Origin: a virus
Lineage: Duplodnaviria; Heunggongvirae; Uroviricota; Caudoviricetes
Virus record (IMG/VR): IMGVR_UViG_2737471849_000007
Length of the DNA stretch: 22,608 bases
Reading direction: 5' to 3' (one strand)
In this document: piece by piece, positions 1,099-7,917 of the stretch
Layout of the letters: every line of letters begins with the position of its first letter
How positions within the stretch are numbered: the stretch's first letter is position 1
The notes under the pieces: generated by a model
The model's input: only the letters and a program-made list of their open reading frames with translations
What the model was told of the DNA's origin: nothing
The model's database searches: none
Position numbers and translations under genes: made by a program

Positions 1099-1156
1099 AA
1101 AAAGGGCGGCAGAGCAGTCACGGAGTAAAACTGATACCGCCAAACGTCACCAGAAA
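1099..1156 (-). ncRNA. dicF: DicF small regulatory RNA (antisense inhibitor of ftsZ translation)
   Basis: Reverse complement of 1099-1156 reads TTTCTGGTGACGTTTGGCGGTATCAGTTTTACTCCGTGACTGCTCTGCCGCCCTTTTT, matching remembered DicF and ending in a T-run; lies between ydfC and dicB. Ends approximate to a few nt. Confidence 0.85.
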
Positions 1157-3419: not shown

Positions 3420-4365
3420 ACGCCCACTGGTTATAAACACGCAGCTGGCAATGAAAATTGGCTTAAACGAAGCCATTGTTTTGCAACAACTGCACTACTG
3501 GTTGAGAGATACCAACTCCGGCATGGAATGTGATGGTGTTCGCTGGATTTATAACACAACGGAACAATGGCTGGAACAGTTCCCATTCTGGTCAGAGTCA
3601 ACGTTAAAGCGCGCGTTTGCAAGTCTGAAAACGCTGGGGCTTTTGCGTTGTGAAAAGCTCAATAAATCAAAGTGCGATATGACCAATTTCTACACGATCA
3701 ACTATGGGAGCGAGCTTTTAGATGGTGGCAAATTGAGCGAATCCATCGGTTCAAAATGCGCCGCTCCATCAGGTCAAAATGACACGATGGAAGAGGTCAA
3801 AATGAAACGCTCCATTGATTCAAAACGACCCAATGTCATCGGGTCAAAATGGCCTGATGATCTTACAGAGAATACAACAGAGATTACTACAGAGAATAAA
3901 AACACTTTTCGTCCGGAAGCTTCGCAACCGGACCCGCAGACGACTGAACAGGATTTTTTAACCCGGAACTCCGACGCGGTTGTGTTTAGTGCGAAAAAAC
4001 GCCAGTGGGGTAGCAGGGAGGATTTGGCGTGTGCGCAGTGGATCTGGGGGCGGATCGTGGGTCTCTACGAACAGGCAGCCAGTGATGATGGCGAGATCAT
4101 GCGACCAAAAGAGCCTAACTGGACTGCCTGGGCCAATGACGTGCGCACAATGCGGATGCTGGATGGCAGAAGCCACAGACAAATTTGCGAAATGTTTGGT
4201 CGGGTTCAGCGAGATCCATTCTGGGTAAAAAACATCATGAGCCCGTCAAAGCTCCGCGAAAAATGGGACGAACTGGTCATCCGCCTGGGACGTTCACCTG
4301 TACAGCGTTGTGTTAATCATATTTCTGAACCGGATACAGAAATTCCGCCTGGTTTCAGAGGATAA
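3400..4365 (+). CDS. Phage replication initiator / replisome organiser (lambda O-like; about 322 aa from ATG 3400)
   Basis: Track ORF 3346..4365; likely start is ATG at 3400 (MSLLFAERPLVINTQLAMKIGLNEAIVLQQLHYWL...). N-terminal winged-helix-like domain, central low-complexity linker carrying DNA iterons, C-terminal domain resembling DnaT-like/phage conserved C-terminus (DPFWVKNIMSPSKLREKWDEL). Family assignment by pattern recognition only. Confidence 0.6.
   Translation: MSLLFAERPLVINTQLAMKIGLNEAIVLQQLHYWLRDTNSGMECDGVRWIYNTTEQWLEQFPFWSESTLKRAFASLKTLGLLRCEKLNKSKCDMTNFYTINYGSELLDGGKLSESIGSKCAAPSGQNDTMEEVKMKRSIDSKRPNVIGSKWPDDLTENTTEITTENKNTFRPEASQPDPQTTEQDFLTRNSDAVVFSAKKRQWGSREDLACAQWIWGRIVGLYEQAASDDGEIMRPKEPNWTAWANDVRTMRMLDGRSHRQICEMFGRVQRDPFWVKNIMSPSKLREKWDELVIRLGRSPVQRCVNHISEPDTEIPPGFRG
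3741..3900. repeat. Putative replication origin: five iterons at 23-bp spacing plus three AT-rich 12-bp repeats
   Basis: Core (G)GTCAAAATG / GTTCAAAATG / ATTCAAAACG ends at 3758, 3781, 3804, 3827, 3851, each preceded by a CCATC-like motif; then ACAGAGAATA / ACAGAGATTA / ACAGAGAATA at 3865, 3877, 3889. A 23-bp period is not a multiple of 3, so the repeat is DNA-level. Confidence 0.6.
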
Positions 4366-4405: not shown

Positions 4406-4828
4406 GTGGCAAAAGTTTTTACACAAGAAGAGCGGGAAAAAATTAAATGGCAGGTGGTGGAACTCGTGCACCAGAGCGGCCGTGAGACGTTACGGCAACT
4501 GGAAGCTAAAACAGGTGCGACTAGATATCTGATGAGCGTTCTTGCCAGAGAGCTGGTAGCCAGTGGCGATGTATACAACTCCGGCTACGGGTTATTCCCC
4601 TCTGAACAGGCGCGTAAGGACTGGCAAAACGCCCGCAAAAAACTCTCGAGGGCAAAGGTGAAGAAACCTGCTGTGGTTGATCCGGACCTTATCTGGTCAT
4701 CACCTGACGGAGAAATACGTCGCTACGACAGTCGCCTAAACATAATCTGTCGCGAGTGCCGGAAGAGCGAAGTTATGCAGCGCATACTGGCTTTCTATCA
4801 GGGTAATTTTCAGGACGTGGCGCAGTGA
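4406..4828 (+). CDS. Hypothetical protein (140 aa), possibly winged-helix; GTG start
   Basis: Track ORF; GTG at 4406 with AAGGGGGA upstream; stop overlaps the next gene's GTG start (GTGA). Confidence 0.5.
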   Translation: MAKVFTQEEREKIKWQVVELVHQSGRETLRQLEAKTGATRYLMSVLARELVASGDVYNSGYGLFPSEQARKDWQNARKKLSRAKVKKPAVVDPDLIWSSPDGEIRRYDSRLNIICRECRKSEVMQRILAFYQGNFQDVAQ

Positions 4829-5181
4829 GTGCACCGGCAACCATTCTTGATATGTGCTGTGGCAGCCGCATGTTCTGGTTCGATAAGTCTGACGAACGGG
4901 CGATATTTAGCGATATCAGAAAAGAAGGATACACATTACGCAATGGGAGACGCTTGATTATCAGCCCTGACATTATCGCAGATTTTCGTGCATTATCATT
5001 TGCAGACGCATCTTTTTCGATGGTTGTATTAGACCCTCCGCATCTTGAGCGTGTTGGTGATAACGCCTGGATGGGAAAGAAATATGGACGGCTGAATAAA
5101 GATGCCTGGCGTGATGATTTGCGACAGAGATTTAAAGAAGCTTTTCGGGTGTTGAGGCCGCACGGCGTTCTGATTTTTTAA
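4825..5181 (+). CDS. SAM-dependent DNA methyltransferase-like protein (118 aa as encoded; possibly truncated by in-frame TAA)
   Basis: Motif I-like ILDMCCGSR and motif IV-like VVLDPPH, then RVLRPHGVLIF; the frame stays open 29 codons past TAA (5179-5181) to TAA at 5269-5271. Confidence 0.5.
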   Translation: MSAPATILDMCCGSRMFWFDKSDERAIFSDIRKEGYTLRNGRRLIISPDIIADFRALSFADASFSMVVLDPPHLERVGDNAWMGKKYGRLNKDAWRDDLRQRFKEAFRVLRPHGVLIF

Positions 5182-5791
5182 TGGAATGAAACGCAAATAC
5201 CGGTAAGCCAGATTCTGGCACTGACAGATAGAAAGCCTGTTATCTGTCAACGAACAGGGAAAAAACGATAAAACCCACTGGATTATTTTTATGAAAGAGG
5301 CATCCAGTGAGTAGATTCGTAAGGTTACAGATACGTATATCTGAATAATTAAATTCAGTTCTGTAAATAAAACTTAATCCTTAACCGGATGGATTTCTGC
5401 ACCCTCAGAACATCAGGAGGCCGCCCGAAAGGGCGGTAGTGAAATGCGAAAGTTCAAAATTATTATTGAAACGGGAATAGCTGGTGGAGATTTTGAGGAT
5501 GTATTCGAAGTGGACGATGACGCAACACCTGATGAAATTCATGACGGAGCATAAGAAATTTTCTTTAACTACTGCAATTACTCATACCACGAAATAAAAG
5601 ACGATGAGGAAGAACAAAGTGGCTGATTTTTGTTCAGCTAAATATAACATCAGTTTTGAAGAGCGGGATGAACTATTAATGGACTATGGTGAGTTACGCG
5701 GTGGAAGTGCTGCTGATGTCGAATCCTAGCGTGATGACTATGAAGCGGGAAAAACTCCGGTCGAAGCATATTGTGATGAGTGGGGCGATGA

Positions 5792-6079
5792 ATGAGCGAG
5801 ATTAATTATCAGGAAGGGCATGAAACGGCGGGGCAAGCAAAACCAGTGACATGGCGATATCGCTACGTGAAAAAAGGCGTTACGGACTTTCAGGGGAAGT
5901 AGTGGTCTGGTGACTGGAAATATGTACCGAAAAAAGAGGATTGTAACGACAGGCCGAACTATCAAATTCAGGCCTTATTCACTGCCTCACCAGTCCCGGT
6001 TACATCAGAAGAATTGGTTAAAGCTGTGCACTTTTATGAACAACTAAAACGCGAAAATCCACCAACATCCGGCAACTAG
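5792..6079 (+). pseudogene. Small prophage ORF interrupted by in-frame TAG (36 codons + amber + 58 codons)
   Basis: ATG 5792 (ATGA-coupled to the preceding frame): MSEINYQEGHETAGQAKPVTWRYRYVKKGVTDFQGK, TAG at 5900-5902, then WSGDWKYVPKKEDCNDRPNYQIQALFTASPVPVTSEELVKAVHFYEQLKRENPPTSGN to TAG 6077-6079. Confidence 0.35.
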
Positions 6080-6333
6080 ATTAATGGGTTAACTATGTCG
6101 GTTAAACGACCAGCCAACTGAAAAAGCGGAAACCTGATTACAGGTTGCCAGATAAGGCAATGAGCTACCTGGCGCGGAACGGACTGATAAGTATGGGGAA
6201 TGTTTTACGATGAACCTTTAGACTAAAGAGTTTGTAACGCTATGTAAGTGATTTTTTCTGGTTTAGATATTTATATGTCCGGCCAAATTGAGGTGTGTTT
6301 AAATGTAATTGCACATTGATTGTAGGAGGAATA

Positions 6334-6513
6334 ATGAAAAACGCATTGCAGTTTTTGTTTGTTGCGTTCTGGTTGTTCGCATCATGTATGCCCATCATCT
6401 TCACAGCAAGGTATATGGAAAAAGTTGATGTTTTGATATTAATATTTGGATATATAAATGCCCTTTTTTTAGGGGTGTTCATGGCGGTCATGTGCATTGA
6501 ATACTGGCGGTAA
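6334..6513 (+). CDS. Small two-TM membrane protein (59 aa), function unknown
   Basis: AGGAGG about 7 nt upstream of ATG 6334; MKNALQFLFVAFWLFASCMPIIFTARYMEKVDVLILIFGYINALFLGVFMAVMCIEYWR has two hydrophobic helices; track ORF 6295..6513 is the same frame from an upstream alternative start. Confidence 0.45.
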   Translation: MKNALQFLFVAFWLFASCMPIIFTARYMEKVDVLILIFGYINALFLGVFMAVMCIEYWR

Positions 6514-6847
6514 ATACAGCGAACTCCATTGGTTTAGTTGGATATTTACTGTGCTGGACAAAAACGGTTTGCGGGGAAATCTTAGTTAAGTAGAATGACT
6601 GCGGGTGCTTGAGGCTATCTGCCTCGGGCACGAACACCAACGGCAGGTAGAGAAAAGCCCCAGTTAACATTACGCGTCCTGCAAGACGCTTAACATTAAT
6701 CTGAGGCCAATTTCATGCCAGACACATGTAGGTTAGCCTCTTACGTGCCGAAAGGCAAGGAGAAGCAGGCTATTGTTAACACCAAGCTGTAATGTCCCCT
6801 TTGAACCATTCTAAAATGTCCCCAGACAATTCTCTGGGGGATTTTTC

Positions 6848-6994
6848 ATGACCAAAGAAACTGTTACGATGAGTCATAAGGAACTCCACCGACTTCAGAT
6901 TATTCAGGAGTCAATTAATCGACATATTACTCAGGAACAAGCTGCGGCACGCATTGGCATTTCTATTCGGCAGGTTAAACGTCTGGTGCCATGA
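6848..6994 (+). pseudogene. HTH-domain ORF resembling the N-terminus of an IS transposase (48 aa), apparent remnant
   Basis: MTKETVTMSHKELHRLQIIQESINRHITQEQAAARIGISIRQVKRLVP then stop; downstream frames do not continue a transposase-like sequence; preceded by hairpin CCCCAGA-caattc-TCTGGGG (6819-6838). Family assignment from memory, uncertain. Confidence 0.3.
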
Positions 6995-7540
6995 ACGAGT
7001 GGATAATGCCCGTATTGATTTACGCTCAAAATACTATGTTAAACCTAAAGCTGACCATCCCTGGCTTACGCGCCGAACGCAAAGTCATCAGCAAGTTAAG
7101 CCCCCGAAGTTACCTAAAAAGAAGCCTGATCCCGATAAAAAAGATTGAAACCAAGATCGATTCGGTTGAGTGCATATCCATTCATAGGGTAGATTCTTAA
7201 GTCGCGTTTCTGGTGTTCATTTTCGGGTGGTTTGTTACTTGTTTTACCGGGGATATGCCAGAAACGCGCTGAGTCAGTCTGGGCGGTGCGCGTAATGAGG
7301 CGTTATGGTAAATAGCCTATGCTAATGTCCGCTAAGAGCAAGAAGCGGAAGTTGGCAGTTTTGTGGACTGTCCCCACAAAAGTGACTACAGAAATAGTTG
7401 CAATTCATAATTGATCATGGGTTGTCAGTTAAACTCGTGGCGATTTAAATAGACTAATTGGGAGTGCGTCCATTACTTATATCTTGTAATGTTAACTATC
7501 AGAAATGATACAAAGATAATATGTCTTTAAAGAAAAGGCT

Positions 7541-7584: not shown

Positions 7585-7917
7585 TTAGACGTAAATATCA
7601 ATGGTGCCAGCGGTATTTGTATCGTCTTTTTTCTCTTCTTTTTTATCAGGCTGAACTGTCGCGTCTTTATTCTTTTTCTCTGCCTGCTGCCTTAACAACT
7701 GCTCCAGTTGAGCCCTGAGGCTTTCAATTTGCTTCTGTACCAATGCAGCCATTTCTTTTTTCTGCTGTGTCGTCATCCCCTCTTCCGATGAGATTTTCCC
7801 AAGCTTTTCAGTCAGCACCTGAATTTGTCTTGTGATTTTGGCTATTTCTGATGTTCCTTCCGGGGCGGAGTTGTTTGAAATAACGGTTGAGGTATTTCCC
7901 TGAATTGTGACAGACAT
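7585..7917 (-). CDS. flxA: FlxA (110 aa), sigma-28-dependent prophage protein
   Basis: Track ORF of 110 aa, Gln/Lys/Glu-rich coiled-coil-like sequence; a sigma-28-type promoter lies directly upstream. Confidence 0.88.
   Translation of the reverse strand: MSVTIQGNTSTVISNNSAPEGTSEIAKITRQIQVLTEKLGKISSEEGMTTQQKKEMAALVQKQIESLRAQLEQLLRQQAEKKNKDATVQPDKKEEKKDDTNTAGTIDIYV

Follow-up and report, generated by a model that had tools for sequence, protein, structure and literature searches.

A small reading frame in a Qin-type prophage

The stretch of DNA considered here (22,608 nucleotides, IMG/VR virus record IMGVR_UViG_2737471849_000007; hereafter the window, meaning this DNA at its full length) is a Qin-type (DicA/DicC) lambdoid prophage of Escherichia coli. 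An unannotated gap in this prophage, with decayed genes of the nin region on its left and a hok/sok 5′ leader on its right, contains an open reading frame (ORF) of 59 codons, here termed ORF59, that points in the same direction as the early-right (nin) operon. As judged by comparison with its relatives, ORF59 is very probably a genuine accessory gene of Qin-type lambdoid prophages and encodes a predicted inner-membrane protein of 59 residues. The frame opens with an ATG at 6334 and closes with a TAA at 6511–6513, and its product would read MKNALQFLFVAFWLFASCMPIIFTARYMEKVDVLILIFGYINALFLGVFMAVMCIEYWR. A preliminary description of the window, made from the bare sequence, had placed a 59-residue ORF at 6334–6513, and the ORF, on the plus strand, proved to be as described. 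In the feature lines below, lineage A denotes the form of ORF59 carried by the window and lineage B a divergent homologue.

6214..6555 (342 bp), plus strand: AT-rich segment bearing ORF59, absent from other prophages that have both flanks
6216..6228, no strand assigned: 13-bp palindrome CTTTAG-A-CTAAAG, about 105 nt upstream of the ATG
6324..6329, plus strand: Shine–Dalgarno sequence AGGAGG, separated from the ATG by the 4-nt spacer AATA
6334..6513 (stop codon included), plus strand: ORF59, putative gene for a 59-residue small membrane protein (lineage A), from the ORF call; intact in 82 of 83 loci, with a homologue in lineage B
6376..6387, plus strand: lipobox-type motif at codons 15–18 (F-A-S-C), from a PROSITE-type rule; S17 and C18 invariant
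6464..6470, plus strand: T7 homopolymer inside ORF59, a potential frameshift hotspot

The consensus Shine–Dalgarno sequence that the preliminary description reported is indeed present, with position 6327 polymorphic (A/G) in 7 of 29 haplotypes. The spacing, which had been called optimal, was overstated: 4 nt lies at the short end of the usual range, though it is workable.

A divergent homologue and constraint on the frame

A phmmer search against 1.84 billion representative sequences retrieved a second protein of 59 residues (P0037), which aligns with the ORF59 product over positions 1–59 without a gap, at 41% identity (E 1.2e-8). The commoner variant of this lineage B, P0042, reads MRKILMYLCISIWIVISCVPIILTSEYLTEASIMALMFGHANALCIGVFISIIYIECWR. 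Lineage B DNA occurs as a single copy in 1045 of the 5426 complete E. coli genomes, among them those of UTI89, NC101 and ATCC 11775, which, together with other carriers, we take to be B2-type strains. It sits between ttcA, the Rac attachment site, and uspF, in a prophage remnant made up of an integrase fragment, a DUF1627/DUF977-like fragment, the ORF, a spacer of about 70 nt, a C-terminal fragment of hok and a permease pseudogene. By BLAST this remnant is collinear with the prophage type of the window: nucleotide identity is 74% over the C-terminal fragment of DUF977, 59–68% over the ORF and 81% over the hok fragment. Because the two loci are collinear and hence homologous, the shared order of ORF and hok was inherited and not assembled twice. 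In both lineages ORF59 is intact where its neighbours have decayed.

The ORFs of lineages A and B are 59% identical at the nucleotide level, with 58%, 71% and 47% identity at codon positions 1, 2 and 3, respectively: the second position is the best kept and the third the least. The NG86 method gives 0.45 nonsynonymous substitutions per site (dN) and 2.1 synonymous ones (dS), a ratio of 0.21. When the same 73 changes were placed at random, 1.1% of the trials preserved both the start codon and an open frame, and 0.5% left at least 24 residues identical. The alignment runs without gaps across the ORF, whereas the flanks require several. The comparison also fixes the start: lineage B has an in-frame stop six codons upstream of the ATG, which excludes the 72-residue extension from a GTG that some GenBank records adopt. 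This pattern of substitution indicates that ORF59 in all likelihood is, or until recently was, a functional protein-coding gene. That it is a real gene for a small membrane protein, independent of hok, is on balance probable.

Two observations concern the surroundings of lineage B. The ttcA–uspF region, as seen in NGF1, UTI89 and Ecol_448 (L209–L211), is a fixed and heavily eroded Qin-like remnant in which the lineage B ORF is the sole intact frame. In one IMG/VR contig (L208, IMGVR_UViG_2684622582_000011) the lineage B copy, at 4001–4180, has some 1.4 kb upstream of it a cluster of three genes (326–2563) and an integrase fragment; read from its ORF translations, the cluster looks like cdtA-cdtB-cdtC, the genes of cytolethal distending toxin. 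Other genomes with lineage B have ttcA as the neighbour instead.

Distribution and variation of the window's lineage

Of the 5426 complete E. coli genomes, 1587 contain lineage A, with an identity to the 421-bp query (6200–6620) that is nowhere below 95%, and protein and translated searches for it returned only copies from E. coli and Shigella, at about 93% identity or more. Together the two lineages occur in 29–48% of complete E. coli genomes, and at least one genome, that of FDAARGOS_536, has both. A profile search with both lineages yielded no third.

A sample independent of the ORF was obtained by scanning IMG/VR for an invariant 24-mer of the hok leader, which gave 114 usable loci. ORF59 stands upstream of the leader in 83 of them and is intact in all but one of these 83; the other 31 loci have different upstream contexts. 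The preliminary description had named a lack of conservation of the ORF in related prophages among the findings that would refute it; conserved it is, so that this ground for refutation falls away.

The T7 tract raised the question of frequent frameshifting, as frameshifted alleles are present in metagenome-derived clusters. This was rejected: an exact 65-mer search of complete genomes found the unshifted T7 in 1188 records, T8 in one and T6 in none. Likewise dismissed was locus L088 (CP178302.1), which had passed for a distant homologue with 53% identity and is an indel-ridden copy of the same DNA, about 90% identical at the nucleotide level. Many homopolymer indels occur across this region, so that its ORF59 seems broken; among the species-representative assemblies only L088 is so affected (the Shigella flexneri SFBU loci L086 and L087 are not), and the indels are probably sequencing error or the mark of a low-quality assembly, not biology.

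Predicted architecture of the product

The product has two hydrophobic segments, at approximately residues 4–25 and 33–55, joined by the linker TARYMEKVD. Kyte–Doolittle means over 15 residues reach 2.3–2.4 and the grand average of hydropathicity is 1.27. An AlphaFold2 model built on a nine-sequence alignment has helices at 2–26 and 28–58, with a mean pLDDT (predicted local distance difference test) of 74. Hydropathy and model alike bear out the two helices with a short polar loop that had been proposed for this ORF. The N-terminal lysine and arginine residues, together with an acidic or neutral loop, point to an N-in/C-in topology by the positive-inside rule.

Nineteen residues are invariant between the lineages (M1, L5, L8, W13, S17, C18, P20, I21, I22, T24, L36, F38, G39, N42, A43, L44, E56, W58 and R59), and Y27, G47, F49 and I55 are nearly so. 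The invariant residues recur at i, i+3/4 and i+7 on each helix, a periodicity that suggests one conserved face per helix. The small and polar residues among those conserved (S17, C18, T24, G39, N42, A43 and G47) would fit a tightly packed hairpin or an oligomer interface.

A variant of this picture, compatible with it and possible, if far from assured, is that ORF59 encodes a small prolipoprotein. Residues 1–17 would then be cleaved off by signal peptidase II at (F/V)-x-S-C18, and acyl chains and the C-terminal helix would together anchor the mature lipopeptide of 42 residues to the inner membrane, on the periplasmic side; it would act much as the small exclusion lipoproteins TrbK, Cor and Llp do. 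All five sequences checked, drawn from both lineages, match the PROSITE-type lipoprotein rule in its regular-expression form, as against 0.8% of composition shuffles: they have a lysine or arginine within the first seven residues, no charge from −10 to −5, and (L/I)(F/V)(A/V/I)-S-C with the cysteine at position 18. S17, C18 and P20 are invariant despite an overall identity of 41%. Against cleavage, the residues that follow Cys18 (M/V-P-I-I-F/L-T) are hydrophobic, there is no aspartate at +2 for retention in the inner membrane, and the modelled helix is continuous through 2–26, more like an uncleaved transmembrane helix; the motif could instead be a helix-packing face.

Possible functions

ORF59 would be expressed by read-through of the early-right operon. 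In lineage B expression might instead come from TGaCATAAT/TGaTATAAT, an extended −10-like box about 75 nt upstream of the ORF, but a promoter scan gives no more sites than it does in shuffles. The product would insert in the inner membrane as an N-in/C-in helical hairpin, its two helices packing through their conserved small and polar faces; alternatively, helix 1 would be removed as a lipoprotein signal peptide, leaving a lipid-anchored peptide of 42 residues with one transmembrane helix. At the membrane of the lysogen it might block the entry of phage or plasmid DNA, or modulate a host membrane protein. This role, entry or superinfection exclusion or modulation of a host membrane protein, is the favoured one, though offered tentatively and by analogy with T4 Imm, HK97 gp15, TrbK, Cor and Llp.

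TrbK (entry exclusion of IncP plasmids), Cor (phi80, N15 and HK022) and Llp (T5) are very small envelope proteins with a lipobox that shield their carrier from incoming DNA. ORF59 resembles them in its match to the lipobox rule in both lineages, its lipid modification being only predicted, and in its accessory location on a prophage. It differs in that no homology was detected, and Cor and Llp are directed to the outer membrane and have no C-terminal transmembrane helix. T4 Imm and HK97 gp15 are small inner-membrane proteins of phages and prophages, products of moron-type accessory genes, that block DNA entry. ORF59 is likewise phage- or prophage-encoded, small and predicted to reside in the inner membrane, but sequence and fold comparisons revealed no match to them, and no promoter–terminator pair was found for lineage A. 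A sequence search of the PDB returned nothing, and a fold search of BFVD gave no hit better than E 0.9.

Family searches with lineage B produced sub-threshold matches only: DUF4212 (PF13937) in four members, scoring 13.9 bits where the gathering threshold is 30; MPS-4 in a single member (E 0.49); and phrog_6298. DUF4212 is the small two-helix subunit of sodium:solute symporters, and the likeness to ORF59 lies in this layout of a small two-helix membrane protein, the weak match of lineage B covering residues 4–56. Besides the low score, what sets ORF59 apart is the lack of any match in lineage A and an unrelated genomic context.

The preliminary description had also entertained a holin-like protein. 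Class II holins and pinholins, such as S21, are small and phage-encoded and have two transmembrane helices. ORF59, however, stands outside the lysis cassette, between the replication/nin genes and hok; in Qin-type prophages, as on the K-12 Qin map, the lysis genes follow the antiterminator, well away from this locus. Nor does the product have a dual-start motif or a charged C-terminal tail, as it ends four residues after helix 2 (I-E-Y-W-R). Foldseek matches of ORF59 to holins have E values of at least 3. Given its position in the nin region, away from the lysis genes, and the missing charged tail, a holin is unlikely.

A somewhat unlikely explanation, but the next after exclusion or modulation, is an orphan small membrane toxin of the GhoT, OrtT or type I-like kind, which would damage or depolarise the inner membrane, be silent or titrated in the lysogen, and serve prophage maintenance or abortive infection. 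It is weakened by the lack of any antitoxin and by the long retention of an unguarded intact copy. GhoT and OrtT are two-helix membrane toxins of E. coli with 57 residues, OrtT being an orphan with no cognate antitoxin. ORF59 is close to them in length, in hydrophobicity, in the arrangement of two helices about a short polar loop and in its restriction to E. coli. The strong Shine–Dalgarno sequence of lineage A also suits a toxin, as does the cluster of toxin–antitoxin loci nearby (the hok/sok remnant at 6603–6773, with relBE and hokD downstream), and the excess of nonsynonymous polymorphism described below would fit a tolerated loss of activity. Against a toxin, the Pfam models of GhoT/OrtT, Hok, Ldr, TisB and other toxins gave no match with an E value of 10 or less. 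The conserved motifs of ORF59 differ from those of GhoT and OrtT, and the lipobox rule, which ORF59 satisfies, is not satisfied by these two. A search for an antitoxin candidate was fruitless: the RNA of the leader (6214–6400) folds no better than its shuffles (z = +0.9), its consensus fold being a hairpin of five pairs only; no conserved antisense promoter or terminator was seen; and no second conserved ORF is common to both lineages. The intact gene persists, moreover, in 1045 apparently B2-type genomes with no intact neighbour, which would be odd for an unguarded toxin.

Hok itself invites comparison, being a small hydrophobic peptide borne on prophages and plasmids, and ORF59 is a physical neighbour of hok/sok. 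Hok has a single transmembrane helix, a periplasmic tail containing cysteine and an elaborate mRNA (tac/fbi/ucb, mok and the Sok target), none of which ORF59 has. With two hydrophobic helices, an unstructured leader and no Pfam match at E up to 10, ORF59 falls outside the Hok/Gef family. As to the antisense RNA or adjacent antitoxin that the preliminary description had proposed to look for, a type I toxin–antitoxin remnant (hok leader and sok region) does lie directly downstream, but it belongs to the lost hok and not to ORF59.

The case against a functional gene

Several observations weigh against ORF59 as a functional gene with the role just proposed. The functional assignment has no support from homology, the lineage A protein having found nothing significant in Pfam, NCBIfam, PHROGs or PADLOC. 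No sigma-70-like promoter for ORF59 turned up in a scan of lineage A. The consensus Shine–Dalgarno sequence is not conserved, since lineage B has only a weak CAGGGA. The case for constraint draws on one deep comparison, as there are only two lineages, both from E. coli and Shigella; and the search that led to lineage B relied on likeness of protein sequence, so that it would have passed over homologous loci whose frame is closed or decayed. T-rich DNA, moreover, readily gives hydrophobic ORFs.

Polymorphism within the lineages shows no sign of current purifying selection. In the ORF-independent sample, lineage A has seven segregating substitutions over 180 nt, all of them nonsynonymous (A16V, V31I, I37M, Y40H, L44I, V48G and F49S) and none synonymous, and one indel allele was also seen. 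The five copies of lineage B differ by two nonsynonymous changes and no synonymous one. By hand calculation, with 143 nonsynonymous and 34 synonymous sites counted on lineage A and applied to both lineages, nine nonsynonymous changes out of nine have a probability of about 0.15 under neutrality and about 0.001 if dN/dS (omega) were 0.2. Recent evolution therefore looks relaxed or diversifying, or else displays the surplus of mildly harmful variants that close relatives usually carry.

The alternative that ORF59 is a non-functional chance ORF is improbable. On this account a T-rich spacer happens to stay open for 59 codons behind a hexamer resembling a Shine–Dalgarno sequence, and is conserved only because the prophage segment is young. 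Open frames of this kind are easily come by: dinucleotide shuffling produces an ATG-initiated ORF of at least 59 codons in 13% of cases for the 343-bp AT-rich segment and in 64% for the surrounding 1 kb. Lineage A varies by no more than 5% everywhere, its internal changes are all nonsynonymous, and RefSeq makes no call in the records inspected. A frame of this length preceded by a motif like the Shine–Dalgarno sequence, on the other hand, is found in 0.2% of shuffles of the segment and 2.4% of those of the 1 kb. A chance ORF also sits ill with a frame, length and start that are kept at 59% nucleotide identity, with conservation in the order of codon positions 2, 1 and 3, with the dN/dS of 0.21, with probabilities of about 0.01 for the open frame and 0.005 for the amino acid identity, with an ORF alignment that is gapless beside gapped flanks, and with an opposite strand that is closed in lineage B.

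The AT-rich segment

The GC fraction is 0.359 over 6214–6556 as against 0.43 and 0.49 in the flanks. Two other prophages (L099 and L131) share both flanks with the window: on the left the end of the preceding gene (...NGLIS..VLR*) and on the right, from GGA(C/T)AAAAACGGTTTGCGGGG onwards, the hok promoter; between them lie only about 80 bp with a 27-residue ORF. Because these 80 bp or so take the place of the whole segment, 6214–6555 is a discrete AT-rich piece. It thus shows the combination by which morons are recognised, a discrete insertion of deviant base composition. There is no evidence that the segment moves by itself, as all retrieved loci present it in a single context.

In prophages devoid of ORF59, its place just before the hok promoter is taken by other very short ORFs with hydrophobic products (L099, L131, L153, L188, L192 and L197; L137; and the L120 type). 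One, of 27 residues (MTWPEAFTTTGIAMASALVVYSVCRWG), overlaps the stop codon of the upstream gene in ATGA. A second, of 29 residues ((V/M)LVLKCALAITAVMAIYCLAIVLMDRLSD), follows CAGGAGG; GenBank has it on 31 contigs under the name hypothetical protein. A third context holds a version of this second ORF shortened to MGHLSD.

The palindrome near the left end of the segment recurs in lineage B as CTTCAG-T-CTGAAG (L208, about 3880–3892), with one compensatory pair change; its outermost pair is polymorphic in lineage A. It is part of a stretch of about 55 nt that, by eye, is some 80% identical between the lineages, above the conservation of the ORF, and could be a protein-binding site or a small hairpin. 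Scans for promoters and terminators on both strands gave no pattern above chance. A terminator-like hairpin on the minus strand (6131–6146) was dismissed, as it is not conserved among lineage A haplotypes.

The adjacent hok/sok remnant and the surrounding genes

The elements that flank the AT-rich segment are as follows.

5444-5626, plus strand: DUF7167 pseudogene, from the RefSeq-derived gene order
5792..6213, plus strand: decayed gene upstream of ORF59, with a frameshift and an internal stop; a pseudogene in the Prokaryotic Genome Annotation Pipeline (PGAP)
6557..6602, plus strand: hok promoter region, TTGCGG-16 nt-TAGAAT, identical in a phage with intact hok (L005) and assigned by analogy with R1 hok
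6603..6773, plus strand: remnant of the 5′ leader of hok mRNA (tac/ucb, mok start and Sok target region), with the hok ORF missing (Rfam RF01794)
6774..7400 (right limit approximate), plus strand: left end and truncated transposase of an IS1202-like element (ISEsa1 family, ISNCY)

The Rfam model RF01794 matches 6603–6774 on the plus strand with 99.8 bits (E 7.6e-22). The model, although named ‘sok’, corresponds to the 5′ region of hok mRNA in sense orientation: by comparison with R1 hok mRNA, the consensus extends from the GGGUGCUUGAGGC tac element to the Shine–Dalgarno sequence and AUG of hok. Because the model is sense, the hok transcript would start near 6603 and be co-directional with ORF59. 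In phage vB_EcoS-640R1 (L005), which shares this ORF59, intact mok and hok come next on the plus strand, and the Hok reads MKQQKAMLIALIVICLTVIVTALVTRKDLCEVRIRTGQTEVAVFTAYEPEE. Homology of the window to this intact hok stops at 6773, just past the ‘AT’ of the hok ATG, and the left end of the IS1202-like insertion sequence (IS) begins at 6774. The element matches in two pieces, with an internal deletion of about 1 kb relative to IAI1-type copies. Its junction with hok, ATTGTTAACACC, recurs in 25 of the 73 ORF59-bearing IMG/VR loci with enough downstream sequence.

The locus is a clean example of hok/sok inactivated by an IS exactly at the start codon of the toxin. According to work by Pedersen and Gerdes from 1999, IS elements reportedly often inactivate chromosomal hok loci. 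The hok locus has been struck by a further, independent IS in strain 300709 (L002, NZ_CP025903.1, 3504–4945), where a separate IS150 has entered the same leader at a point corresponding to about 6703 of the window. A decayed hok on the minus strand had also been considered, as a 60-residue ORF at 6488–6670 (−) has a Hok-like end (...EFAVFTAS); it was rejected, because both RF01794 and the intact hok of L005 are on the plus strand. This ORF runs across the hok promoter and into the 3′ end of ORF59, and its likeness to the C-terminus of Hok is coincidental.

It is very improbable that ORF59 is an accessory of hok/sok, whether as a modulator of the insertion or toxicity of Hok or as a frame whose transcription feeds hok expression. 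ORF59 does lie directly upstream of hok in the same direction in both lineages, and 83 of the 114 hok loci with the same leader 24-mer have it. Each is nonetheless found with the other missing: ORF59 accompanies an intact hok in 47 loci and a disrupted one in 26 (25 of them with the IS junction of the window), and 30 loci with an intact hok have no ORF59. In lineage B the ORF stands beside a hok fragment that has lost promoter, sok and N-terminal half, and descent of both loci from a single type of prophage, with which they are collinear, accounts for the order they have in common.

The gene order of the window was read from the near-identical region in annotated RefSeq genomes. On the minus strand are dicB, dicF, ydfC, ydfB, ydfA and dicA, followed on the plus strand by dicC, a YdaT-family gene, a replication-type gene, DUF977 (4406–4828) and an S-adenosylmethionine methyltransferase gene (4825–5181). 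Beyond the gap that holds ORF59 come the ISNCY/IS1202-like transposase pseudogene, ydfW, flxA (7585–7917, minus strand), ydfV, relBE, hokD, rem, ydfU and the antiterminator, the last about 6 kb downstream of ORF59. Rfam models matched DicF (1104–1155, minus strand), two cspA thermoregulators and IS009, in addition to ‘sok’. The last codons of the decayed gene at 5792..6213 (...NGLISMGNVLR*) are common to intact genes elsewhere (compared with L099 and L005). The decayed surroundings of the preliminary description are thus real: a DUF7167 pseudogene and a frameshifted gene upstream, the hok leader remnant and a transposase pseudogene downstream. A 4.83-Mb record labelled DH5alpha (L001, NZ_CP026085.1) has a long, non-K-12 form of Qin, from the YdaT-family gene through the IS. 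This long form is deleted in K-12, so that the DH5alpha label may be wrong; judged by its Qin map, K-12 would have no lineage A.

Annotation status

ORF59 had been described as unannotated. This stands for RefSeq, where PGAP does not call it in any of the seven lineage A records inspected, nor does it call the lineage B ORF in any of the records displayed. The description was slightly overstated for GenBank, where at least 1000 contigs have an entry for the exact protein, named ‘hypothetical protein’ or ‘membrane protein’. A text search with peptide strings from ORF59 gave no match among the papers covered. In two phage records, PV340562.1 (10959–11210) and ON470612.1 (23105–23356), the only annotated ORF is an 85-residue shadow ORF on the opposite strand, labelled ‘hypothetical protein’ or, once, ‘hornerin’, which is likely a mis-annotation. 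The chance that this opposite-strand ORF (6240–6497 in the window) is the true gene is negligible, its annotation in these two records notwithstanding, because all three minus-strand frames are closed in the homologous region of lineage B by several stops each, leaving no minus-strand ORF of 40 or more residues.

Implications

The gene is uncharacterised: curated family libraries do not contain it, and RefSeq does not annotate it in the records that were inspected. As a type, a small accessory membrane protein of prophages, it is familiar. ORF59 might be the founding member of an undescribed family of 59-residue prophage inner-membrane proteins, possibly lipid-modified and domesticated in E. 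coli, and acting as an exclusion factor or an unguarded toxin, a reading that we advance with caution. It would be fixed at ttcA–uspF in apparently B2-type strains and be carried on Qin-type prophages elsewhere. The remaining possibilities comprise other roles, including that of a gene now in decay.

Small membrane proteins are systematically missed by annotation, and ORF59 provides a concrete case. If it does exclude phages or plasmids, or perturbs the membrane, this would explain the survival of one frame in a remnant whose neighbours have all decayed, and would add to the functions that defective prophages provide to their hosts.

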